From an uncultured Pseudomonadales bacterium (GTDB lineage: Bacteria; Patescibacteriota; Microgenomatia; UBA1400; PJMF01): a DNA stretch of 64,000 bases. The position numbers and the translations under genes are program-made. The DNA is taken from assembly GCA_964556485.1 (NCBI GenBank), contig CAZKVV010000001.1, positions 148,551 through 212,550 on the forward strand, given 5' to 3'. Under the pieces are notes generated by a model. The model ran no database searches and had not been told where the DNA came from. It saw nothing but the letters and a program-made list of their open reading frames with translations. Positions within the stretch are counted from its first letter, which is position 1. Each line of letters starts with the position of its first letter. Below are positions 21,652-38,284 of this stretch, in pieces.

Positions 21652-21727
21652 CTCATAACCCACTCCCCTTGCTTTTTGCCTGCATTTCTGCCTAGAATGA
21701 AGCTATATATATCAAGGGACAAGATAC

Positions 21728-24208: not shown

Positions 24209-27200
24209 CTAGTTTACTTCCTGCCAGATTAGTCCTGGGGCCATGAGGAGTTCGGGCGTCGTTTCTACAAAGTCAGGTCGATATACAAATACAGAGATTG
24301 GATTGAGGTTATTTAGTGCTGCGGAGAGCGCGTTTGATGTATTCGCATAATCGCGCGTGAGAGCAATCCCACTCCAACCTACAAATGTGCCAGCACCAAT
24401 GAATTTACGGTTCTGAATTGCTGGACTCACGTGTGATGCCACGGAAATACTACCATCTGCGACATAGACACCTTCAATATTGGTAACATCAGAAACTGGA
24501 GTAGTAGGATCTAAAAAGCCGACAGTTTCACTAATGGTGATATTTCCGCCAACAATAAATGCTACGTAGCCACCTTGTTCGACCTTGATTAACTCATCAA
24601 GATTATTGGTGTTAGAGATAGTAAGGTCATCACGAACAAAGATAATTCTTCTCTCCCCCGTAGCAATGCTTATTGTAGAAGCAACGTTTGGATCAATTGT
24701 TAAGCTGCCTTCACGATATGAGACTTGTGTGCCGTCGTTAGTATCAGTGAAGCCAACGGTGAGTTGCGTCTTGGTGTTAATGGTAGCGCTAGCAATCTTT
24801 GTCATGCCTGCAAGATCGAAATTGCGCGCAAAGTATGTGTAATCTTGCCTGAGTGCTCTCGAGAAATCAGCCCCTTCTGCTTTGTAGTTTGTCGAAGGTG
24901 GTGTGGCGCCTACATCTGATTCACGGTAATATCCAGCATTACTACTACCGCTACTAATAGTGCCAGAAGCTGCAATAGCTATTCCAGCAGTTTTGTTTGC
25001 ATTTGTCACATCCCTGATTGTAATGTAAGGCGTGCAGATTCCCGTGCCATCTGCAACACATTGATCGGTGATATTTGATACAACTCCGTTGTTGGTTGCA
25101 TAGATGAGCCCTCCAACTCCTTGCCACCATGGACCGTTACTAAGGTCGTATTGTTCGGCATAAAAAGTTACGCCGGTGCGTGGATTTGCTAGTCCTGTGT
25201 ATTGACAGGTAAAAGGATCTGCACCAGGAGCTGGACAAGCGCAGGCTGCGGTGTTAGTAATGTCTGAATTAGTGAAGGTTGAGCTAACAGTCACTGTCCC
25301 CCAGTTGCTCGTGGGTGTGTACGCAGCACCAGTGATGGTGTATGCAAAAGCTGCTCCATTGAAGTTTACATTTGCAGTTATTGGAGTAAAACCACCAGAA
25401 ACGGTACCAGTGACGACGGCAGTAACACCAGGAGCTGGGATTACTGCTGAGCCTCCATTACTACAGATTCCACCAACTATGCTATAACTACCATCTCCAA
25501 GGTAGATGCTCCCAGTCAGATTGGCGATTAAACTAAAGTCAGTAGCTGTTGCCCAGTTTCCATTCTGTGTACCGCATGACGTATTGCGAGCTCTGACGGA
25601 AAAACTGAGATCTCTGCCAGTAGCATACTCGTTTTGAACGTTCGAAATGGTGCGGTTGAGTGTTGAGAAAGTTACTGTGTCGTAGAACATTACATCAGCG
25701 CTGGTTGTACGAACTGCCCAGGCAGCTGTTGGGTTGGCAAAGTCGCCAGTATCCCAGACAATCACATCATATTCATCAACATAGCTAGCTCCAGTTGTAG
25801 GCGCACCCCAACCTAGTGTGATTTGGTTGGCAGTATTGGTCATATTGTATGCTCCTGAGGGAGTTAGATTTGTTGGTGTACCTGGAGTACCAGTTGGACA
25901 AGAAGTGATTTGAACAGGGATTGAACAAGTAGAGCAGTTATTGCTTGGATAGCACATTGCAACACTTGGGTTACCGCTACACCACTCGCCATCTTCGCCA
26001 TAAATATTGGCAGTTACCATATAATTCCCCGCACTCAGTCCGGAAATATCCCAACCGTGAGTGCCATTTGCACTGTATAAATAGTTAGAGTTGCTGGCGT
26101 TGTTCGCGGGTTGCCATGCTGGGGTTGGAGCACAGTAGTTGCCTTGCTGTGAAGTATAGAAAAAGCGGACGTTGGCAACGTCGGTTGTCCAATTTTTATA
26201 AAGCCTCACGTTATCATAATATACTGGCCAAGTAGTGCCGTTTGATGGAGGTCTAAGTATTACTCGTATTTGAGATTCATTGTAGCCCGGATAGTTGGTT
26301 AGACTGAAAGTATGTTCAAACTCCTGCCATTCAGAAGCAGATAGTGTAATTGGTGTTGTATACAAAGTTGAAGGCGGATTTGTCCAGTCTCCACCACTTG
26401 GGTAGGCTTGTATCTGCATGTTAACTGTATTAGCCGTTGAAGAGTGTGCTTTAGCCATGAATTTGAGAGTGAATGATCTGCCGTTTATGTTTTCACCAAC
26501 ATCAATAAAGTTGCTTGCTGCATATGAGTCTCCGGCTGCAGCCCTGGCCATAGCAAAATAATAGCGCCCGTCTGCCGGTGGGCCGTTTAGAAGTGAATCA
26601 GGAGTCCAAAATGCACCTAAGTTATGTTGTATCCACCCATTTGTATTAGCTAATTCGAATGAGTGATTGCCATCGCCAATAATGTAGCCATAGTTTGCGC
26701 CTTCGTAAAAAGAATCGACTGTAATTGGAATGGTGCCAGCGCTCACGTCATAGGTGCCTTGTGGAATGCTAAATCCTTCACAAATAGGGATGGTTGGCAT
26801 TGGATCGCCAGGATCTGGAATTGGTGGGCCTGTGACTTCTATTGTTGATGTGGCGCTACCTGCCATGTAGGTGCCAGGAGTGAGATTCATTTCGCAGCTG
26901 GCTGTGATGATTGCGGTTCCAGTGCTGATTGGAGAAATAACGGTTTGATATGGGGTTGTTGCATCGGAAGGAGATAGGACGCTAGCAACTCCTCCGTTGC
27001 TGTTTGTAAAATTAACTCTACTAACCGAGCCGCCTGTTGAAGTAACACTTGCAGTTAGCGTTGTGCTTGAGCCACCAACTGTGAGGCCAGCAGTTGTTGG
27101 TGAGAGAGTGACTGAGCAACTATTATTTGAATTACATGTGTTTCCACAGTCAACTGGACAGTTGCAGTCTGTTTCTTGTCTGCAAACTGCTGTTCCTTGT

Positions 27201-27823
27201 TCACAAATGCCATTTCCGCACCAGCCACAAGAGCCGCAAGTGCCGCAGTCTTGTCCACAACTTGAGCAGGTCTCCGGAGCCAAGCATAAGAGGTCGCCAC
27301 AGTATCCAGGTGGTTGTGGCGTGTTTGGAGGATTGCTTGGAGTTGGGGTTGGGGTTGGTTGGGGATTTGGAGGGTAATTGCAGCAACTGAGATCTCCACC
27401 CTGAGGTGAGAGAGTACTACAGTCTCCTTGAGTGCCAAGGCAAGTGCCTGTATAAGGCGCGGAGGGACCGCAGTTGCCGCCAACATTTGTACATGCTAAT
27501 CCACCGGCACTGCAGTTACCCGATCCTCCAGGGATGGTATACATGTTGCATCCATTTTTTCCTGGGGCATAGCTGTAACAAGTTCCCGATCCTCCATTTG
27601 TTGAGCATGTGTGAGGGTAATATTGTTGGTCGGTAGTATCATCATTGAGACAATGAGTCGTGCCATTTGTACAATCACGAATTCTCCAGTAGGTATTCGT
27701 ACCTGTGCAGGTTCCACCGTCGCCACATTGAGTGTCTGCCAATGTTTTACTTGGTACTAAAAAAAAGCTCGCTGCTAATAAAATGGCAATTAGTTGATGT
27801 AAAATGGCGCCTTTAGTTTTCAT
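24209..27823 (-). CDS. 1204-aa secreted Cys-rich multidomain surface protein, putative pilus-associated adhesin
   Basis: Signal peptide; Cys/Gly-rich N-terminal modules; PT-rich linker (PNPQPTPTPTPSNPPNTPQPP); Big-like beta-sandwich segment; jelly-roll/CBM-like and FN3-like stretches. No antisense alternative is credible. Confidence 0.8.
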   Translation of the reverse strand: MKTKGAILHQLIAILLAASFFLVPSKTLADTQCGDGGTCTGTNTYWRIRDCTNGTTHCLNDDTTDQQYYPHTCSTNGGSGTCYSYAPGKNGCNMYTIPGGSGNCSAGGLACTNVGGNCGPSAPYTGTCLGTQGDCSTLSPQGGDLSCCNYPPNPQPTPTPTPSNPPNTPQPPGYCGDLLCLAPETCSSCGQDCGTCGSCGWCGNGICEQGTAVCRQETDCNCPVDCGNTCNSNNSCSVTLSPTTAGLTVGGSSTTLTASVTSTGGSVSRVNFTNSNGGVASVLSPSDATTPYQTVISPISTGTAIITASCEMNLTPGTYMAGSATSTIEVTGPPIPDPGDPMPTIPICEGFSIPQGTYDVSAGTIPITVDSFYEGANYGYIIGDGNHSFELANTNGWIQHNLGAFWTPDSLLNGPPADGRYYFAMARAAAGDSYAASNFIDVGENINGRSFTLKFMAKAHSSTANTVNMQIQAYPSGGDWTNPPSTLYTTPITLSASEWQEFEHTFSLTNYPGYNESQIRVILRPPSNGTTWPVYYDNVRLYKNWTTDVANVRFFYTSQQGNYCAPTPAWQPANNASNSNYLYSANGTHGWDISGLSAGNYMVTANIYGEDGEWCSGNPSVAMCYPSNNCSTCSIPVQITSCPTGTPGTPTNLTPSGAYNMTNTANQITLGWGAPTTGASYVDEYDVIVWDTGDFANPTAAWAVRTTSADVMFYDTVTFSTLNRTISNVQNEYATGRDLSFSVRARNTSCGTQNGNWATATDFSLIANLTGSIYLGDGSYSIVGGICSNGGSAVIPAPGVTAVVTGTVSGGFTPITANVNFNGAAFAYTITGAAYTPTSNWGTVTVSSTFTNSDITNTAACACPAPGADPFTCQYTGLANPRTGVTFYAEQYDLSNGPWWQGVGGLIYATNNGVVSNITDQCVADGTGICTPYITIRDVTNANKTAGIAIAASGTISSGSSNAGYYRESDVGATPPSTNYKAEGADFSRALRQDYTYFARNFDLAGMTKIASATINTKTQLTVGFTDTNDGTQVSYREGSLTIDPNVASTISIATGERRIIFVRDDLTISNTNNLDELIKVEQGGYVAFIVGGNITISETVGFLDPTTPVSDVTNIEGVYVADGSISVASHVSPAIQNRKFIGAGTFVGWSGIALTRDYANTSNALSAALNNLNPISVFVYRPDFVETTPELLMAPGLIWQEVN

Positions 27824-28535
27824 GCAAACGAACTCTCAATGGAATAACTACTTTTTCATCAGAAAGAATGGAACTGACTTCTCCTGATTGAGAAAATTGC
27901 GAAGCATTTAGGTTGTAGTTTTTGAGTAGCTGGTGCATAAACTCATAGCCAGGTTGCAATTTATCAACTTCGGTGAGATCTTGGGTTGGATCAATCAAGA
28001 GTGTAACAAATGCTAGGTTTAATGGTCTAGTGTTGATAACACTATCAATGAGATTGTTGACACCTGCATCATCAAATGTGCCCTCAGGGTAGAATGCTTT
28101 TCCATATATCAGTGTTGATGTTTCATTTTCAATGTACTGAGGCACTTTATATCGTTCTACAAAGCCAAGGTTATTTTTATGGTTGCAATTCATCACCGAT
28201 CTGACTCTCCAGCCACCCTTGAGTTCGATTGTTTTCTTCTCAAAGCCAGTTATACGACATGGAAAGGTAACTTTATTTTCTGAAACATCCTTAATGAAGC
28301 TGCTTGAATCGTTTATATCAGAAATGTCAGGAAGTGTGTGCAAGTTGAGCGAGATGCTTGAAAGTCTATTGCTTAAATACGCAGAAACTAAATAGAAAAC
28401 CAAACCAAATAGTAGGATTAAAACAAACGGCAAAGTATACTTCACTTGATTTTTCACTCTACAAGTAATAGTACACCAAGTGACTAGAGACGACAAGCTA
28501 GTTTTTTTTGAGTCGTCTTTAGTGAACCGAAGCAT
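27813..28535 (-). CDS. membrane-anchored protein of the pilus-locus operon, unknown function
   Basis: Single N-terminal TM (YTLPFVLILLFGLVFYLVSAYL). Overlaps neighbouring genes by 11 to 17 nt, consistent with translational coupling. Confidence 0.5.
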   Translation of the reverse strand: MLRFTKDDSKKTSLSSLVTWCTITCRVKNQVKYTLPFVLILLFGLVFYLVSAYLSNRLSSISLNLHTLPDISDINDSSSFIKDVSENKVTFPCRITGFEKKTIELKGGWRVRSVMNCNHKNNLGFVERYKVPQYIENETSTLIYGKAFYPEGTFDDAGVNNLIDSVINTRPLNLAFVTLLIDPTQDLTEVDKLQPGYEFMHQLLKNYNLNASQFSQSGEVSSILSDEKVVIPLRVRLHEN

Positions 28536-30321
28536 TAACTAGCATTGGAAACATAAAGCGATACGAGAGGTCATCAATGACAACTTCAACTAACACTGAA
28601 TTATCACCTGTCTCAACAAAACTGCTGACGTCAGCGTCATATGCGGCTATCAAAGATGCGTAGATTTCCTCTTGCTCTGGGGTTATAGCACTATTTACAC
28701 TCGACTGGTTGAACGAAAGAAAGCTTACACTGAAAAACTCATTTTTTCCGGGAGTCAATGCGCTATTTACCATATTTTGCACAGCTGCATCATCAAAGGT
28801 AACTCCTTCTGGAAGATTAAATGAAAAATATCCGCCACCATCTTTAATTGCGATAACTTTGATTGTTCCGTCGTTCATTGTTTTTTCCATCCATGCTGGA
28901 ATAGAAATTGTTCGCTGATCACCGTTGCTGTCAAAATAGTTTGCATCAATTCGTGCTCGTACGGAAATATCTTGCAAATTGAAGCGCTCAAATGAGGTTC
29001 CCGCATGTTCTAAAATCATTCCATAGAATGTTGATTTTTCGAGTGGACCATTTGCAAACTGCTCTAAGAATAGTTCCATGATTCTTGCTTCATCGGCGTT
29101 TGCAGGTGTTCGCTCGTAAGTGTCTCTGGTTTCTTGAATTTGAGTTGATGTTATATCTACAGTTGGGGTCGCTGTTGGAGATTCTGGAGGGGTAACTTCA
29201 GTTGGTTCAATAGCCGGTTCAGTAGGCTCAACTTCTGGTGCTGGTAAACCTAGCATCGCTGCTCTTTCTGTCTCGTATTGTTCTTTGGTTACAAATACAT
29301 AGACACCTTTGTCTGGATCATATAATAAATAGTATTTTCCGGAAGTGTCTGTATTCGTCCATGTAAGTCCAAACATTCCTGGAACATCAAAAATTTCTTC
29401 GATGGTTGTTTCTCCATCAGGATCAAAAATTTCGTATTGAATATCTAGGTTGGATGGAGTGAGTACGCTACCCTCTTGATCACCTTGCACTTCGAGGCCT
29501 GTTACAACTGCACCTGAAGGGTGGGTGAAGATTAGGTATTGTGCTTGACCACCATCATCAAAACCACAGAGTAGTGCGTCATGCGAACCATATTCCGCAT
29601 CAGCAAAATTAGCATACTCATCTGTTCCTGGTAAGTTTCTAAATCTGAAAAATGGGTTTGCATCCCCTCCGAAGTGTGATAAAAATGCAGGATTTGAGAT
29701 GACTGCCTCGCTGGGTTTCCCTCCGGTAATACCAGTTTCAGCAAAGCACATCTCATAATACTCTTTTAATTCTGGGCTTAGTTCAGTCCAATCACCGCCA
29801 ATTACACCATCTGGAATTCTTGTTAATGCAACTTCTGCAGTTATGCTGGCAGGAGCTTCAAAAGTTGGTGTAGGGGTTAGAGGTATTGCTGTCTGAGCTT
29901 CAAAAGGAGTGGGAGACTCTTCTATTTGGACTGTTTGTGTTGGAAATGAAGTTACGCCAGGTTCAAGTGGTATTGTTGCGCAGGCTGCAAAAAAAACAAT
30001 AGTAATAATAATGAGTGCGAGAATCACTGCGAATCGAGATTCAGCATGACCATTTTCACTTTTTTTCTTAAGATCTATAAATTGAGTCGGATCACCTTTT
30101 AACAAATCGCCTATTGCTTCTTGTGCAGTTTCATTAATTGCTTCAATTTTCTCTGGTGTTAACCCTTGTTCAATAAGAGCTGCCTCAGCAGTTGCCGCAG
30201 CAGCTTCGAGAGAAGTAATAGCTGGTATTCCCGCAATACCTGCAAGGTCCGCAATGTCTACGGGGTGTGATTCTTGGCCTTCCAAGCCATTAATTGCAGC
30301 GAATTCAGCAGGTTGTGCCAT
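28519..30321 (-). CDS. bitopic membrane protein (about 115-aa cytoplasmic N-domain, TM, about 480-aa extracytoplasmic domain), unknown function
   Basis: Start set at MAQPAEFAAING. TM segment FAVILALIIITIVFFAACA. PT/PE-rich linker segments. Confidence 0.5.
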   Translation of the reverse strand: MAQPAEFAAINGLEGQESHPVDIADLAGIAGIPAITSLEAAAATAEAALIEQGLTPEKIEAINETAQEAIGDLLKGDPTQFIDLKKKSENGHAESRFAVILALIIITIVFFAACATIPLEPGVTSFPTQTVQIEESPTPFEAQTAIPLTPTPTFEAPASITAEVALTRIPDGVIGGDWTELSPELKEYYEMCFAETGITGGKPSEAVISNPAFLSHFGGDANPFFRFRNLPGTDEYANFADAEYGSHDALLCGFDDGGQAQYLIFTHPSGAVVTGLEVQGDQEGSVLTPSNLDIQYEIFDPDGETTIEEIFDVPGMFGLTWTNTDTSGKYYLLYDPDKGVYVFVTKEQYETERAAMLGLPAPEVEPTEPAIEPTEVTPPESPTATPTVDITSTQIQETRDTYERTPANADEARIMELFLEQFANGPLEKSTFYGMILEHAGTSFERFNLQDISVRARIDANYFDSNGDQRTISIPAWMEKTMNDGTIKVIAIKDGGGYFSFNLPEGVTFDDAAVQNMVNSALTPGKNEFFSVSFLSFNQSSVNSAITPEQEEIYASLIAAYDADVSSFVETGDNSVLVEVVIDDLSYRFMFPMLVNASVH

Positions 30322-30497
30322 TATTGCTTTCTGTTGGGAGTAAACCACATATTGTTTTATTAAATAGTGGTGTGGTAAACTTCCCTCTTCTTGCACTTAC
30401 TCTACCAGTTTTTGCGTGGTATTTGTATTGTACAAATCGTTCAGTATTTTACCACTGAGTCTTATAATATTGCAATGCGTAGCAGATGTGTAGGGAA

Positions 30498-31067
30498 TTA
30501 GTTAATGACGTTTTCCATCGAATCTAAAATTAGTCTTCTCACGAAATCTGATTTGGATGTATTTCTTTTTTTAGACTCAGTTATAAGAAAAGTGTTCAAT
30601 TTGGAAGATAGTACCATATTAAACCGAATCTCATTGGCTAAGTTCATCTCGAGTAAATAATATTCGACAAGCTCTTTTAATTCAGAATCAGATGAATATT
30701 CACAGAAGAAAACTTTGTTAAGTTTTTCCAAGGTGGGGATGAGATTTGGTTTCGGCTTACCTTTTTTAAAAAAAATTACAACCGGTTTTCCAATGCTTAC
30801 TGCATGAGAAAGGAGGAATCCAACACTCAGGCTTTGTTTGCTGCTTTCTGATATGACAACGTCAGTGCTGGAAATATTTTTAAGTAATTTGAGATGAAAT
30901 GCTGTGTTTTCCAACTCATTTTGCAGGTCAATTTTTTCTTGCGAGTAAGTAGTTACATGGTCACAAATTAAAGTGATTTTGTTGTTATCGCAGACATTCT
31001 TAATGACCTCAATGCTTTTAGCATAAAAATCTTTTTCACGAATTGATCCAATAAAAACTACTTTCAT
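30498..31067 (-). CDS. NDT-like (nucleoside 2-deoxyribosyltransferase/SLOG-like) domain fused to a C-terminal ribbon-helix-helix domain; catalytic Glu replaced by Leu
   Basis: MKVVFIGS start and an SVGFLLSHAVSIGKPVV segment that aligns with the NDT GxGMELGYAxxxGKxV motif but has L in place of the nucleophile E. C-terminal RFNMVLSSKLNTFLITESKKRNTSKSDFVRRLILDSME is a CopG/Arc-like RHH. AT-rich codon usage. Confidence 0.55.
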   Translation of the reverse strand: MKVVFIGSIREKDFYAKSIEVIKNVCDNNKITLICDHVTTYSQEKIDLQNELENTAFHLKLLKNISSTDVVISESSKQSLSVGFLLSHAVSIGKPVVIFFKKGKPKPNLIPTLEKLNKVFFCEYSSDSELKELVEYYLLEMNLANEIRFNMVLSSKLNTFLITESKKRNTSKSDFVRRLILDSMENVIN

Positions 31068-31087
31068 TATTGTTTTGATAGTATATC

Positions 31088-31104
31088 ATACTTACTCAGT
31101 AAGT
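31088..31104. promoter_or_regulatory. 17-bp perfect palindrome TACTTACTcAGTAAGTA in the divergent promoter, candidate RHH operator
   Basis: Read directly. Centred about 26 nt upstream of the 30498..31067 start and about 50 nt upstream of the 31145 start. Confidence 0.5.
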
Positions 31105-31144
31105 AGCTTTGCTGCAAAAAGTGATACAATAACACTCACTAATA

Positions 31145-32188
31145 ATGTCAAAAATGAATAATAACAAATCAGGATTGGTTGAAATTAAACCGTTTATAGT
31201 TAAATCTGTAGGCGAACACAGTATGGGCGCCCCAGTATTGAAATACTTAGAGATAAAGATGCATGATTATCTCAGAGATCACAGTAGAAATTTTAAAAAG
31301 ATTTTAGTTATCGGTGAGTATGATAGAACGTGCTCGATATCTTCATTTGAAAAAGATGGCAAAACATCTAACTGGCAACGTCCAACCGCAGAAATCATCA
31401 ATGATGAGCTAATAATAAAATGTTTTCCTGGAAAGGATTATGTTAGGCATTATGCATCATTAATTGCCTCATATTTGTATTTAACTGATCGAAAGTGGTC
31501 GCATGTTCGATATGTCTTGCCAACAGAAGCGAAATGTGAGGCAGCAGTTGACGACTTATTCCTTGAAAATATTCCCGTTGGAGATGTGTTAATCATTGGA
31601 AGTGGTTTGCCTGCAATCGCAGGCGAAGATCGATGGGAAGGGAATAATCATTATTTATATAAGTCAGTCTCAATTAATAATCAAACGGTAGTATTTTTAA
31701 TTTTTCAGTTTAGTTTTTGGGGTGATATTCTTTACAGAATTATAAAAAAGATGGGTTCATCATTTAAAAAAATTCTCTTCACAGCAAAGGTTGGTGGAAT
31801 TAGATCAGATTTAATTCCTAATGAAACATTAGCAACAGGCAGTCAATCATTTATAGATGGAGAATTTGTAAGTTGGAAAGGTCTTTTCGAAGATGTAACT
31901 TCTCCATTTTTGGTAAAAGGTCGGCATATTAACTCACCTTCAGTACTGTTGGAGACTAAAGCTTGGGTAAAATCATTTTCTGGAATAGAGTTTGTTGACT
32001 CAGAAATTGGCTACTTTATTAAGTCTACTAGAGATATTGGTGTTAACTCTGGATATTTGCACTTTATTTCAAACAATCTTACGAACCCACACGCTGAGGA
32101 TCTCTCAAATGAGAGGGAAAAAAGTGTTATTCTCAAGCGAAGTAAATTGAATGAAGAAATCAGAAGAATAATTTACGAGATTATCTGA
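31145..32188 (+). CDS. hypothetical protein; C-terminal two-thirds resemble the PNP/UDP phosphorylase / nucleosidase fold (low confidence)
   Basis: By-eye motif resemblance only: DVLIIGSGLP, KILFTAKVGGIRSD and FVDSEIGYFI resemble the G-rich phosphate/ribose loops and the (D/E)MEGAA-like segment of MTA/AMP nucleosidases. The 130-aa N-terminal domain is unknown. Very AT-rich. Confidence 0.45.
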   Translation: MSKMNNNKSGLVEIKPFIVKSVGEHSMGAPVLKYLEIKMHDYLRDHSRNFKKILVIGEYDRTCSISSFEKDGKTSNWQRPTAEIINDELIIKCFPGKDYVRHYASLIASYLYLTDRKWSHVRYVLPTEAKCEAAVDDLFLENIPVGDVLIIGSGLPAIAGEDRWEGNNHYLYKSVSINNQTVVFLIFQFSFWGDILYRIIKKMGSSFKKILFTAKVGGIRSDLIPNETLATGSQSFIDGEFVSWKGLFEDVTSPFLVKGRHINSPSVLLETKAWVKSFSGIEFVDSEIGYFIKSTRDIGVNSGYLHFISNNLTNPHAEDLSNEREKSVILKRSKLNEEIRRIIYEII

Positions 32189-32235
32189 TAGAATTCCAGG
32201 TATATGTTATCCAATTTAATAAGGAATGCGAGATT

Positions 32236-32799
32236 ATGAAAGTGCACTTTATTGCTGATGTTGATGGAGATAAAACTGATTATAAAAAGATAATTTCAAC
32301 AATTGAATCACTTAATCATACGATTGTTACAAGGCATTACTTAGAAAGAAAAATTGAGGAAATTGTTCAGGAGTCTCCAGCTGAATCTGAACTATATGCT
32401 AAGAGGTCAATGAGATGGTTGAAAAATGCAGATGTGGTAATTTTTGAAACAACCAAGCCAGATGTGAGTGTGGGGTATGAGCTTGCCGTTGCAGTTAATT
32501 TGAATAATCCTGTGATAGTTATGTATCACAATACAAAAGGTACGCCCCCGAATAGCATAAAGGGTGTAGAATCAGAAAAACTTCAGATCATTGGATACGA
32601 CGACAGCACCTTAGTGGAAATTCTTGAGATTGCACTTGAAAATGCGCATGATTCAACTGATGTCCGCTTCAACTTCTTCATCTCCCCTTCTATTGGTAGC
32701 TATCTCGACTGGATTTCTAAGAATAAGAAAGTCCCACGCTCAGTGTATCTTCGTAATCTCATTCAAAGAGACATGGAAGAGAATGAAGAATATCGATAA
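32236..32799 (+). CDS. NDT-like (nucleoside 2-deoxyribosyltransferase/SLOG-like) domain fused to a C-terminal ribbon-helix-helix domain; catalytic Glu retained
   Basis: Paralog of 30498..31067 (about 30 percent identity, co-linear). SVGYELAVAVNLNNPVIV matches the NDT GxGMELGYA..GKxV motif including the Glu. C-terminal VRFNFFISPSIGSYLDWISKNKKVPRSVYLRNLIQRDME is an RHH. Confidence 0.55.
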   Translation: MKVHFIADVDGDKTDYKKIISTIESLNHTIVTRHYLERKIEEIVQESPAESELYAKRSMRWLKNADVVIFETTKPDVSVGYELAVAVNLNNPVIVMYHNTKGTPPNSIKGVESEKLQIIGYDDSTLVEILEIALENAHDSTDVRFNFFISPSIGSYLDWISKNKKVPRSVYLRNLIQRDMEENEEYR

Positions 32800-32947
32800 G
32801 TTGTCAATCATAACACGATATCTTTATCGATCATGCTTAGCTCAATTTTTCCCACCCTCCTCTTGCGGTTTCTCTGTCTAGTACGCTATAGTAATAAAAG
32901 GTTTATGAGCACGACGCAAAAGTAGTGTATAAATCAGGTAGTACTGC

Positions 32948-33763
32948 ATGTCCAAAACACACCAAACTAATCGACTACAACACGCAAACGTAGTGTGTTG
33001 CGGCAACTCCCAATCTGGTCAAGTTGCTGTGGTTGTATTGCTTATCATGGTGGTATTACTCACCATTGGTCTGTCTCTCGCGGCCAGAACCACCCAAGAA
33101 GTCTTCCTTTCTCAACAACAATCAGATAGTGCTAGAGTATTTAATGCTGCAGAATCTGGCGTTGAAGAGGCTCTGAGTCAAAGTTTTGCTACCGGTGCCA
33201 CAAACGGTAGTCTCGTAGTGGACGGTATTGATGTTAATTACACGGTTAATACTCAAAGTCGACTCGACACACTCATTACTGAGGGTATGAGTGCTCACAT
33301 ACAATTAAATGGTTATGCTGGAAACATTACCATAGACTGGGCGCAAGAAGCCAACTGTGCAGACAGGGCATCGTTCATTGCGACAATTTTTTATGACGAT
33401 GCAGGAGTACTGAGATCTCAACACCTAGCCTTTGGACCACCAACAACTTGCGTCAATCATAACGATAACTTCCTCCAGGGTTCCAACTTGGCAGGAAATC
33501 CGTTCTATCACCGCTACATCATTAGTGGCGCTACGCTCCCAGCCAATTCACAATTTATTCGCCTCAAGCCGGTGTATGCAGATGCTGACATTTTAGTAAC
33601 TGGTAGTACTGGATTCCCAAGTCAACACAATACCATTCGTTCAACTGCTACTTACTCAGGTGGGGATGAACAGCGTAGTATAGAAGTATCGCGTAGTCTA
33701 CCTGCTGCACCAGCATTTATGGATTACGCACTGTATTCAGGAGGAAGCATTACAACGCCATAG
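32948..33763 (+). CDS. PilX-like minor pilin / pilus assembly protein
   Basis: N-terminus QSGQVAVVVLLIMVVLLTIGLSLAARTTQE resembles the PilX N-terminal domain; the rest is secreted. Confidence 0.6.
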   Translation: MSKTHQTNRLQHANVVCCGNSQSGQVAVVVLLIMVVLLTIGLSLAARTTQEVFLSQQQSDSARVFNAAESGVEEALSQSFATGATNGSLVVDGIDVNYTVNTQSRLDTLITEGMSAHIQLNGYAGNITIDWAQEANCADRASFIATIFYDDAGVLRSQHLAFGPPTTCVNHNDNFLQGSNLAGNPFYHRYIISGATLPANSQFIRLKPVYADADILVTGSTGFPSQHNTIRSTATYSGGDEQRSIEVSRSLPAAPAFMDYALYSGGSITTP

Positions 33764-36924: not shown

Positions 36925-37596
36925 CTAAATAGTGTTTGTATCAGGATACTTCTGGAGTGCTTTTTCGGCTGCCGCTTGTTGCGCTCGCTGCTTGCTTTTT
37001 CCTACACCAGTGCCTATGGTTTTGCCATCCACAACAGCATTAACTGTAAATTGTTTGTCGTGGTCTGGGCCTTCAGCCGCGATAACTTCATAGGTTGGTG
37101 TGTCAAATCCAAGCGACTGCACAATTTCTTGCAAGTGACTCTTGGCATCCTTATAGAGTTTATTAGTCAAAATGTCATCTATTTCGACGAAAAGCTCGGT
37201 ATGCAAGAAGGTTCTAACGACTTCAATGCCTTGGTCTAAGTACAGAGCTCCAATAATGGCTTCCATGGTGTCTGCAAGCAGGCTGCTATTAGTGCGTCCT
37301 CCGGTAGCTTCCTCTCCTTTGCTCATGTAGAGTTTATTTCCTAGGTCTAGTTGCGCGGCAATTTTTGCCAATGTGTTTGTTTTTACTAAAGCACTCCGGT
37401 AGGCAGTTAATATGCCCTCAGGTTGTTCAGGAAATTTTTCGTATAAGAACTCGGTTGCGATTAGTTCGAGTACCGCATCGCCAAGAAACTCAAGTCTCTC
37501 ATTACTCTCATTTGAGAGGGTACCAACTTCATTAAGGGCGCTGCGGTGCGTGAGCGCGGTAGTAAGTAGTGAGGTGTTGGTGAATTGAGGAATCAT
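36925..37596 (-). CDS. rnc: ribonuclease III
   Basis: ERLEFLGDAVLELIATEFLYEKFP signature and a C-terminal dsRBD. Confidence 0.9.
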   Translation of the reverse strand: MIPQFTNTSLLTTALTHRSALNEVGTLSNESNERLEFLGDAVLELIATEFLYEKFPEQPEGILTAYRSALVKTNTLAKIAAQLDLGNKLYMSKGEEATGGRTNSSLLADTMEAIIGALYLDQGIEVVRTFLHTELFVEIDDILTNKLYKDAKSHLQEIVQSLGFDTPTYEVIAAEGPDHDKQFTVNAVVDGKTIGTGVGKSKQRAQQAAAEKALQKYPDTNTI

Positions 37597-37599
37597 ACC

Positions 37600-37869
37600 T
37601 TAGCCAAGTTCAACTTCTTCACAAGCCACAGCAGCTAATCCTCGCACTGTTGTTACGCTCTCCTCTGCCGCGAGTTCTTTAGCGTTAAGATTAATTTGGA
37701 GCTCGTCATTTACTGCTGCAACAATGCGCAAAAAATCGGTTGGGCCAATTTCGAGTTCTTCATCAAGGATTGAATCGGGCGTGATTTCTTCAAAATCAGT
37801 GCCGGTTTCATCAGAAATAATGGTTCGAACTTGCTCAAGTATTGTTTCGTAGAGTTCTTGGTTAGTCAT
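37600..37869 (-). CDS. acyl-carrier-protein-like protein lacking the canonical phosphopantetheine Ser
   Basis: ACP-like helical pattern, but ITPDSILDEELEIGPTDFLRIV has Thr where the DSL Ser is expected. Lies upstream of rnc as acpP does in Firmicutes. The ORF could start at 37905, which would give a Lys-rich leader. Confidence 0.55.
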   Translation of the reverse strand: MTNQELYETILEQVRTIISDETGTDFEEITPDSILDEELEIGPTDFLRIVAAVNDELQINLNAKELAAEESVTTVRGLAAVACEEVELG

Positions 37870-38284
37870 GCTGATATTCCTCTTCTTTTTCTGTTGTTTC
37901 TTCATTAGTAGCTTCTTCTCCTTCTGGAAGAAGTAATGTGGCTAGCGCGCCATTAATAAACCTTGACGATGATTCGCTACCAAACTCTTTTGCCATCTCA
38001 ATAGCTTCATTGATTAACACTTTTTTTGGCGTATCTTTATGTTTTGATTCAAACACAATGCTACGTAGGATTGCAAGGTCCACTTGGTTAATTTCAGAAA
38101 GAGGTCTCTCTGGTGCTACAACCTGGATTTCAGCGTCTAGTTCTGTGAGTGAGGTTAGAATCTTGTAAATCGTAGAATCTGGCTCTCGCTCTTCCAAGCA
38201 AATAGCTGTATTTTGATCATTAAAAGTACAAGCAAATAAATCTTGCATTACTTTAATTCGTTTATCGTGTCGATAATCGGACAT
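37862..38284 (-). CDS. nusB: NusB-like transcription antitermination factor with acidic C-terminal tail
   Basis: RHDKRIKVMQDLFA N-terminus and an FINGAL (FVNGVL-like) motif. 140 aa. Confidence 0.65.
   Translation of the reverse strand: MSDYRHDKRIKVMQDLFACTFNDQNTAICLEEREPDSTIYKILTSLTELDAEIQVVAPERPLSEINQVDLAILRSIVFESKHKDTPKKVLINEAIEMAKEFGSESSSRFINGALATLLLPEGEEATNEETTEKEEEYQHD

Follow-up and report, generated by a model that had tools for sequence, protein, structure and literature searches.

The 64,000-nucleotide stretch of contig CAZKVV010000001.1 analysed here (positions 148,551 to 212,550, hereafter the window), from a genome deposited as an uncultured Pseudomonadales bacterium and placed by GTDB in the Patescibacteriota, carries a block of three genes inside a type IV pilus (T4P) locus. 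The outer genes, A (30498-31067, minus strand, 189 amino acids) and C (32236-32799, plus strand, 187 amino acids), each encode a DNPH1-like domain joined to a ribbon-helix-helix (RHH) domain, and the middle gene B (31145-32188, plus strand, 347 amino acids), the cargo gene of the locus, encodes a divergent protein of the NP-I fold (PNP/UDP/MTAN/AMP-nucleosidase-like). We propose, at a probability of roughly 0.55, that A and C act as one-component RHH regulators sensing nucleotides, placed between two pilus operons on either side of a cargo enzyme that varies among loci and is B in this case. The N-terminal DNPH1-like domain would act as the sensor for a (deoxy)nucleotide or nucleoside, a nucleotide-type ligand in its pocket would alter DNA binding, and expression of the cargo enzyme would be tuned to the nucleotide pool. 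The proposal builds on folds, family distribution, synteny, neighbour enrichment, residue states and domain swapping, from which DNA binding, the ligand, the operator and the regulatory targets are inferred. To our knowledge, Patescibacteria possess very few recognisable regulators. The DNPH1-RHH family, whose members in much of the Microgenomates-type lineages lie beside nucleotide enzymes and directly upstream of a pilus-assembly operon, offers a concrete handle on nutrient sensing and pilus control in this phylum.

A and C are paralogues that align over their full length (30% identity, E 3e-20). The three open reading frames (ORFs) and the paralogy of the outer two, as given in a preliminary description of this DNA, were confirmed, and both SVG-type motifs quoted there are present, SVGYELAVAVNLNNPVIV in C and SVGFLLSHAVSIGKPVVI in A. 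The DNPH1-like domain extends from 32236 to approximately 32655 in C and covers approximately 30639-31067 in A, which aligns with the family profile. Compared with PDB, this profile of 76 members matched DNPH1/Rcl over positions 3-136 (E 3e-22); classical nucleoside 2-deoxyribosyltransferases (NDTs) were reached only at E 0.18. The Pfam family PF05014 was detected in C just below its threshold (E 3.4e-6, 27.6 vs 28.8 bits) and weakly in A (E 0.13), and many homologues carry a precomputed PF05014 match. Furthermore, a Foldseek search with an AlphaFold (AF2) model of C (pLDDT 90.7) returned DNPH1 entries at all top 50 ranks (E 4e-9, target TM ~0.8). As had been described, A and C each have an N-terminal domain of the NDT superfamily, which is specifically DNPH1/Rcl-like rather than close to the classical NDTs. 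These domains have the same fold as DNPH1/Rcl and are homologous to it over ~135 residues, with the 'ADVVV-E...PS-GVGYE-G...GKP' core common to both.

The catalytic residues of DNPH1 were mapped onto the family via the hidden Markov model alignment of the profile to its PDB match. The nucleophilic Glu (rat E93/human E104) corresponds to Glu82 in C and to Leu in A; among 138 members it is retained in 74 (54%) and non-Glu (Leu, Ile or Val) in 62 (45%), and among pilX-proximal orthologues the position is occupied by Glu in 10 and by Leu, Ile or Val in 12. The equivalent of the catalytic Asp (rat D69/human D80) is Met, Leu, Val, Ala, Ser or Thr in all 76 aligned members and never acidic, which sets the whole family apart from DNPH1/Rcl, and the equivalent of the catalytic Tyr (Y13/Y24) is His in C, Val in A and Tyr or His family-wide. 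Judged from these residue states, with the Glu lost in 62 of the 138 members, catalysis appears dispensable in the family, and the persistence of a conserved role where the nucleophile is gone argues for ligand sensing over obligatory catalysis.

The pockets of A and C differ in a way that recurs throughout the family. A has an Arg-type pocket, in which a GSIRE loop places Arg at the DNPH1 Arg19 position, Ser occupies the Ser87 position and Leu replaces the nucleophile. C has a Glu-type pocket with Glu82 at the nucleophile position, Asp76 at the Ser87 position, an ADVDGD motif and no Arg in the N-terminal loop. Ser87 and the GSIRGG loop constitute the 5'-phosphate site in DNPH1; A retains the GSIR part of the loop together with the phosphate-site Ser, and C retains the nucleophilic Glu. 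Arg at the Arg19 position (position 10 in C) is found in 53 of 65 non-Glu members vs 2 of 75 members with Glu at the position of residue 82. The two pocket classes are near-exclusive, unlike in DNPH1/Rcl, which has both Arg19 and Glu93, and this exclusivity suggests two ligand classes. Glu-type members may still turn their ligand over; C, accordingly typed, might do so in addition to binding it, and A, with an Arg-type pocket without nucleophile, would only bind. The idea that each pair of flanking genes consists of one Glu-type and one Arg-type sensor was ruled out by the pairs themselves (nine Glu/Glu, five Glu/Arg and five Arg/Arg).

The retained nucleophile in C and in 54% of the members, the strong similarity to DNPH1 in both profile and structure searches, the enzyme-like invariant residues of B and the nucleotide enzymes found as neighbours would also fit a trigger or plain enzyme. 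According to this explanation, which we consider unlikely, the DNPH1-like domains, at least those of Glu type such as C, are active (deoxy)nucleotide N-glycosidases that together with B degrade or sanitise nucleotides from imported DNA, and the RHH domain serves only for autoregulation or to anchor the enzyme to DNA, as in PutA or BirA. It is disfavoured by the absence of the DNPH1 Asp69/80 equivalent from every member, by His and Val in place of Tyr13/24 in C and A, respectively, and by same-position orthologues that switch freely between Glu and Leu/Ile/Val. In C, furthermore, the phosphate-binding Ser87 position is taken by Asp, and a GSIRGG-type loop is missing.

The C-terminal ~45 residues, canonical in C (~32656-32796) and diverged in A (~30501-30638), are the most conserved part of the family, with a putative beta-strand that contains an invariant Asn146 and a nearly invariant Arg144. 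In the AF2 monomer model of C, residues 141-150 are extended and followed by helices at 151-164 and 168-182 (segment pLDDT ~75-96); the RHH strand is not assigned by DSSP, as expected of a monomer. A profile of this region matched only RHH proteins in PDB, namely a CopG-family regulator (7by2, E 0.21) and YiiF (2k5j, E 1.6), and Pfam RHH_3 matched 11 of 20 members below threshold (best E 0.0019). An RHH fold is the best assignment for the C-termini of A and C, weakly but consistently supported by sequence profiles and model topology and not proven, and in this sense the RHH domain proposed in the preliminary description is borne out. This RHH type is exclusive to the ~190-residue fusion, in which it always occupies residues ~140-190 (162 clusters among 1.84 billion representatives). 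Public records name the proteins 'hypothetical', 'nucleoside 2-deoxyribosyltransferase' or 'DNPH1', and no description of a DNPH1/NDT-RHH fusion was found in the searchable literature, in agreement with the earlier impression that the fusion is undescribed.

RHH modules are coupled to small-molecule-binding or enzymatic domains in NikR, MetJ and PutA, where a metabolite sets promoter occupancy. The logic proposed for A and C would be analogous, with an RHH domain joined to a ligand-binding or enzyme domain; the RHH domain is N-terminal in NikR and PutA, whereas it is C-terminal in the A/C family, in which DNA binding is predicted. In Bacillus subtilis PurR (PRTase fold), PyrR and NrdR (ATP-cone), folds of nucleotide metabolism, often catalytically disabled, report nucleotide status to transcription. 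As a functional analogy, the use of a salvage-enzyme fold as sensor of a nucleotide regulon would resemble what is proposed here, although the folds and the DNA- or RNA-binding modules of these proteins are unrelated to those of A and C. RHH regulators under ligand control and sensors derived from enzyme folds are both known kinds, and we know of no described RHH regulator with a DNPH1/NDT sensor fold. What is new is the DNPH1 sensor fold on an RHH domain, present in all family members and in contrast to DNPH1/Rcl itself, together with the two pocket classes, the domain swapping at the junction described below and the conserved site upstream of the Patescibacteria pilus operon. The family would represent a new example of an enzyme fold turned sensor, and its Glu and Arg pocket variants could inform studies of ligand specificity. 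DNPH1 is a current drug target in humans.

RHH domains are also typical of antitoxins, and nucleotide-degrading toxins exist, from which a toxin-antitoxin-like arrangement could be construed, in which the RHH would serve as antitoxin or autorepressor and a DNPH1-like or NP-I protein would be the toxin that depletes nucleotides. This is very improbable. Type II toxin-antitoxin modules consist of two small adjacent genes for a separate toxin and RHH antitoxin, an arrangement that does not occur here: the RHH is covalently fused to the ~140-residue domain that would have to be the toxin, there is no conserved small partner ORF, arrays of up to four or more copies are found in stable core contexts, and B is usually absent.

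Relatives were sought in one genome per species, which yielded 171, and 80 loci were analysed; counts out of 81 loci combine the reference genomes with earlier look-ups. The DNPH1-RHH family has multiple paralogues and is essentially restricted to Patescibacteria, mainly from metagenomes, with a few archaeal or misbinned records, and tandem arrays of two to four or more paralogues are common. About two thirds of the members are located outside pilus loci, beside nucleotide or sugar-nucleotide enzymes. In approximately 25 of the 81 loci, including genomes without A and B, a family gene lies directly upstream of pilX-pilMNO. The recurrent layout of the pilus loci comprises a pilus operon, preceded by a family gene on the minus strand, then a cargo gene, and a family gene on the plus strand that is followed by pilX and pilMNO. 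The cargo consists of class-I S-adenosylmethionine (SAM) methyltransferases of several unrelated types in ~14 loci, a dCMP/cytidine-type deaminase in four, B in three in addition to the window, a UPRTase-like protein in two and a GFO/IDH/MocA oxidoreductase in one. Many metagenome-assembled genomes titled 'uncultured Pseudomonadales bacterium' (among L016-L094) contain typical Patescibacteria genes along with the DNPH1-RHH family, and their taxonomic labels look wrong.

In the window, the position of the block within a T4P locus was confirmed. Upstream are genes for a PilB-like ATPase (T2SSE and MshEN domains), a PilT-like ATPase, PilC/T2SSF and PilD/A24, the flanks include pseudopilins with N_methyl motifs, and downstream follow a protein with a weak PilX_N match, PilM and PilO. 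The arrangement A(-)/B(+)/C(+), bounded by pseudopilins on one side and PilM on the other, is found again in one subclade, in relatives at 50-78% protein identity, and in a more distant genome B is ringed by four family paralogues outside any pilus locus. Of the 80 family-bearing loci from reference genomes, only 3 contain B, and more remote homologues of B are either isolated or part of other pathways. The triad therefore does not form the single co-occurring system that had been suggested, even though the three genes do occur together within this subclade. It is a lineage-specific arrangement and not a fixed three-component system; what is conserved is the association of DNPH1-RHH genes with pilX-pilMNO and with a slot of changing cargo, rather than any association with B.

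Salvage-type genes (PfkB, thymidine kinase, dCMP/cytidine deaminase, UPRT-like and B) account for 35 of 332 ORFs at most two genes away from a family gene vs 5 of 704 ORFs farther away (odds ~16), in a set of loci from related genomes that are not statistically independent and for which neighbour p-values overstate the evidence. The diversity of the adjacent enzymes indicates that the enrichment pattern is real despite this non-independence. Thymidine kinase, the deaminase, the UPRT-like protein and B are always immediate neighbours of family genes. A second conserved context, found in 13-15 loci, comprises RecR, PfkB, a radical SAM (SPASM) protein, DNPH1-RHH, an RmlC-like epimerase on the opposite strand and an M29 aminopeptidase (for example, L029 6180-10492; also L026, L059 and L067). 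These neighbour statistics agree with the regulated nucleoside/nucleotide module in a nucleotide-auxotrophic symbiont that the preliminary description had offered as one possibility. Patescibacteria are described as lacking de novo nucleotide synthesis, and competence and T4P have been proposed as a nucleotide source (PMC11665869, PMC10633639). A broader and tentative hypothesis, less probable than the regulator reading itself, is that DNPH1-RHH proteins are phylum-specific nucleotide-pool sensors that couple T4P (DNA uptake) and salvage or sanitising enzymes, possibly for modified nucleotides, to (deoxy)nucleotide status, with two pocket classes that read different ligands and with sensors exchanged at the domain junction. 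The open proposal of DNA uptake for nucleotide acquisition would become testable with small soluble proteins.

Variable accessory genes occur in other T4P loci, and the block could represent a pilus-accessory island, in which variable enzymes modify pilins, pilus machinery or imported DNA and A and C are local regulators that respond to a non-nucleotide signal. The conserved position between two pilus operons, the methyltransferases as commonest cargo and the adjoining large conserved pilus-associated ORFs without Pfam match are consistent with such a role. However, most of the family, about two thirds, lies away from pilus loci and next to nucleotide or sugar-nucleotide enzymes, the sensor fold is a nucleotide-binding fold, and the cargo proteins of NP-I, deaminase and UPRT-like type have nucleosides or nucleotides as substrates, which leaves this explanation with a low probability.

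Comparison with a sister locus (L038), whose pilus proteins are 85-91% identical to those of the window, revealed that the cassette has been replaced between the two genomes. By blastn, the left breakpoint is at 30481 (L038 6425) and the right breakpoint at 32658 (L038 8435), which is codon 141 of C and coincides with the DNPH1/RHH junction. The C-position proteins of the two loci are 96% identical in the RHH domain and 26% identical in the N-terminal domain, the N-terminal domains pair cross-wise between the two positions (41% and 44% identity), and the middle gene of L038 is UPRT-like instead of B. The pilX-proximal gene carries a canonical RHH in 18 of 23 pilus loci and its divergent partner a diverged one, and the sensor type (Glu or Arg) varies independently. 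An RHH domain tied to its position and combined with an exchangeable sensor is the behaviour of modular regulators.

The block had been described as an AT-rich island, and its AT-richness relative to the flanks is evident: A and B have the two lowest GC contents (0.325 and 0.342) among the 55 genes of the window (mean 0.418, sd 0.032), and C the fifth lowest (0.371). In all 23 genomes compared, the cassette is AT-richer than the adjoining pilXMNO genes (mean -7.4 points), and its GC content follows that of the host. Because the low GC follows the host and the same arrangement is present in relatives at 50-78% protein identity, it is a property of the slot and no sign of recent import; the block is not a recent insertion, and only the compositional part of the island description holds. 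No tRNA or mobile-element genes are adjacent to the block.

The hypervariable cargo slot, its AT-richness in all 23 genomes, the recombination-shuffled domains, one B homologue on a plasmid-like contig and weak ThsB/TIR-type similarities (PADLOC ThsB1, E 0.032; TIR 8fz9, E 0.0019) raise the question of a conflict or defence island. Such a hot-spot would hold nucleotide-modifying or -depleting effectors (nucleosidase, deaminase, methyltransferases) under NDT/TIR-like sensors, directed against phages or competitors or serving self-DNA modification. TIR/ThsB and SLOG-type defence sensors have distantly related Rossmann-like folds, but these scores are far below those for DNPH1, and the locus is without defence partner genes and does not lie in a defence island. 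Furthermore, significant matches were absent from PADLOC, PHROGs and phage searches (phage tblastn with B and C), the setting is always a housekeeping one in reduced genomes (T4P, RNase III, NusB, RecR), GC follows the host, and thymidine kinase, PfkB and RecR are stable syntenic neighbours of other paralogues. The defence or toxin-like system considered in the preliminary description is not supported by these results, and the hypervariability of the slot keeps the defence option alive at low probability.

The 77-bp region between A and B (31068-31144) was read from sequence as a divergent control region with extended -10-like boxes facing both ways, which are consensus-type matches only: AGTATATCA at 31080-31088 for A (TGATATACT on the minus strand) and TGATACAAT at 31122-31130 for B. 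The k-mer TGATATAA(T), which is enriched upstream of family genes, corresponds to the extended -10 box, i.e. to the promoters of these genes. Between the two boxes is a perfect 8-1-8 palindrome, TACTTACT-C-AGTAAGTA (31089-31105), which occurs once in the window; arms of at least 8 were obtained in 391 of 20000 shuffles of the 77-bp region (p ~0.02). RHH dimers of A and C would bind operators in this region, for which the palindrome is a candidate, and perhaps also near the flanking pilus promoters. No terminators were predicted in 30300-33100, and read-through into both pilus operons is therefore possible; it would carry the regulation to pilX-pilMNO and to the minus-strand pilus operon.

A promoter-like element of its own precedes pilX (32857-32892, plus strand), consisting of a C-rich tract with a -35-like box, CTCCTCTTGCGG (32857-32868), an 18-nt spacer and a -10-like TATAGT (32887-32892). 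The corresponding motif, CTCC[C/T]NTTGC followed after ~17-18 nt by a -10 box, is located upstream of pilX in most of 23 distant syntenic loci and also at the promoter of the pseudopilin operon of the window (21663-21698). Of 37 locus matches, 12 precede pilX, and no family gene is preceded by one. The C-rich element of pilX and pseudopilin promoters may mark a pilus regulon under an unidentified factor. It was rejected as an RHH site, being specific to these promoters and absent from those of the family genes.

Several of these results weigh against A and C as nucleotide-sensing regulators of the locus. As pilX has its own conserved promoter, whose motif is absent at family genes, it is conjecture from position that A and C control the pilus genes. 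The palindrome at 31089-31105 is not significantly recurrent in other loci, and no operator common to the loci emerged, the k-mer enrichment being that of the -10 box only and the palindromes of orthologous divergent regions not being shared; a TAAGTA half-site enrichment was discarded as operator signal, since it was post hoc and confounded by the AT-rich composition of intergenic DNA. The RHH assignment comes from weak sequence scores (E 0.002-0.2) and a monomer model, C retains the nucleophilic Glu and could be a plain enzyme, and the commonest cargo, in ~14 loci, is a SAM methyltransferase of unknown substrate and no salvage enzyme. In addition, in the only Patescibacterium examined by genetics, growth does not require the competence genes, and the requirement for T4P is tied at least partly to motility (PMC11665869, PMC10633639).

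B has a catalytic-type domain at approximately residues 145-347, preceded by a conserved N-terminal domain of ~140 residues (EK..K..NWQRPT); in the NCBI gene call the protein has 344 amino acids, and its start may thus be at 31154. It has a divergent NP-I (PNP/UDP) fold, so that the PNP/UDP-type fold anticipated for the middle protein was borne out, and is proposed to be a nucleoside/nucleotide N-glycosidase or phosphorylase. Identity to members of the NP-I superfamily (PNP, UP, MTAN and AMP nucleosidase) is only 9-14%. B of the window has no match in Pfam (PF01048, PNP_UDP_1), and a few homologues carry a precomputed PF01048 match (P0144 scores 21.3 bits vs a threshold of 25.1). The B family is tightly conserved, with enzyme-like invariant residues and an active-site likeness to NP-I enzymes by motif only. 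It differs from the superfamily in the extra, strongly conserved N-terminal domain and in its putative catalytic Asp, which is Asn in B of the window. Mapping of the active site on Escherichia coli DeoD by hhalign, using an approximate DeoD sequence, gave an insignificant alignment and was dropped.

B homologues are found mainly in Patescibacteria metagenomes and additionally in archaeal records, fungi and Streptomyces plasmids. The Streptomyces homologue (37% identity, E 9e-80) is encoded on two plasmids within a conserved cluster of QueD, QueE, GTP cyclohydrolase I (FolE), a protein here termed X, B, thymidylate kinase, DUF2797, SAM methyltransferase and NUDIX (L100 2301-9107, Streptomyces sp. 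NBC_00536 plasmid; L101 3365-10080). X is homologous to the N-terminal half of 603-residue B fusion proteins (E 1e-22), which provide a Rosetta-stone link between X and B, and one fusion gene (P0137, L006 6001-7812) adjoins a gene of the thymidylate kinase family. X has no match to Pfam or PDB sequences, and its identification as a TGT/DpdA-like transglycosylase, a guess from a motif, was rejected as it had no support from either. A literature search on the cluster returned nothing, and it apparently represents an undescribed 7-deazapurine nucleotide pathway. The recurrence of B in nucleotide-level pathways, such as that for 7-deazapurines in Streptomyces, agrees with an NP-I enzyme acting on nucleosides or nucleotides. 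Proteins of the B family, which combine the NP-I fold with the N-terminal domain, seem to represent uncharacterised enzymes that act in pathways of modified-purine nucleotides.

Two proteins of ~600 residues, P0137 on a 910-kb metagenome contig and P0144 from an archaeal record, are natural fusions of X (N-terminal half) and B (C-terminal half). Homologues of B at 32-38% identity were also identified in fungi, including Mycena, Aspergillus and lichen-forming and other ascomycetes (P0187, P0197, P0201, P0203, P0206 and P0216), a patchy cross-kingdom spread of an uncharacterised NP-I subfamily. A weak B-like match on a Klebsiella oxytoca plasmid (L098 5007-5897; 23% identity, E 4e-4) is too weak to interpret; it corresponds to a 296-residue ORF annotated as 'RHS repeat-associated core domain-containing protein' between insertion sequence elements.

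An NCBIfam search gave no meaningful match, and an Rfam scan of 30200-33100 detected no known RNA element. Between the stop codon of A and the minus-strand pilus operon lies a conserved non-coding stretch (30397-30497, minus strand) with promoter-like sites, including minus-strand matches at 30475-30446 and 30492-30464; the overlapping segment 30297-30481 has 83% DNA identity to L038. The pilus-associated minus-strand operon downstream of A encodes ORFs of 625, 240 and 1204 residues (24209-30396), followed by a pseudopilin. These three ORFs have no Pfam match, their synteny with the pseudopilin gene is kept in many Patescibacteria loci, and they are probably lineage-specific pilus components. 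On the other side, beyond the pilMNO genes, RNase III (36925-37596) is followed by NusB (37862-38284).

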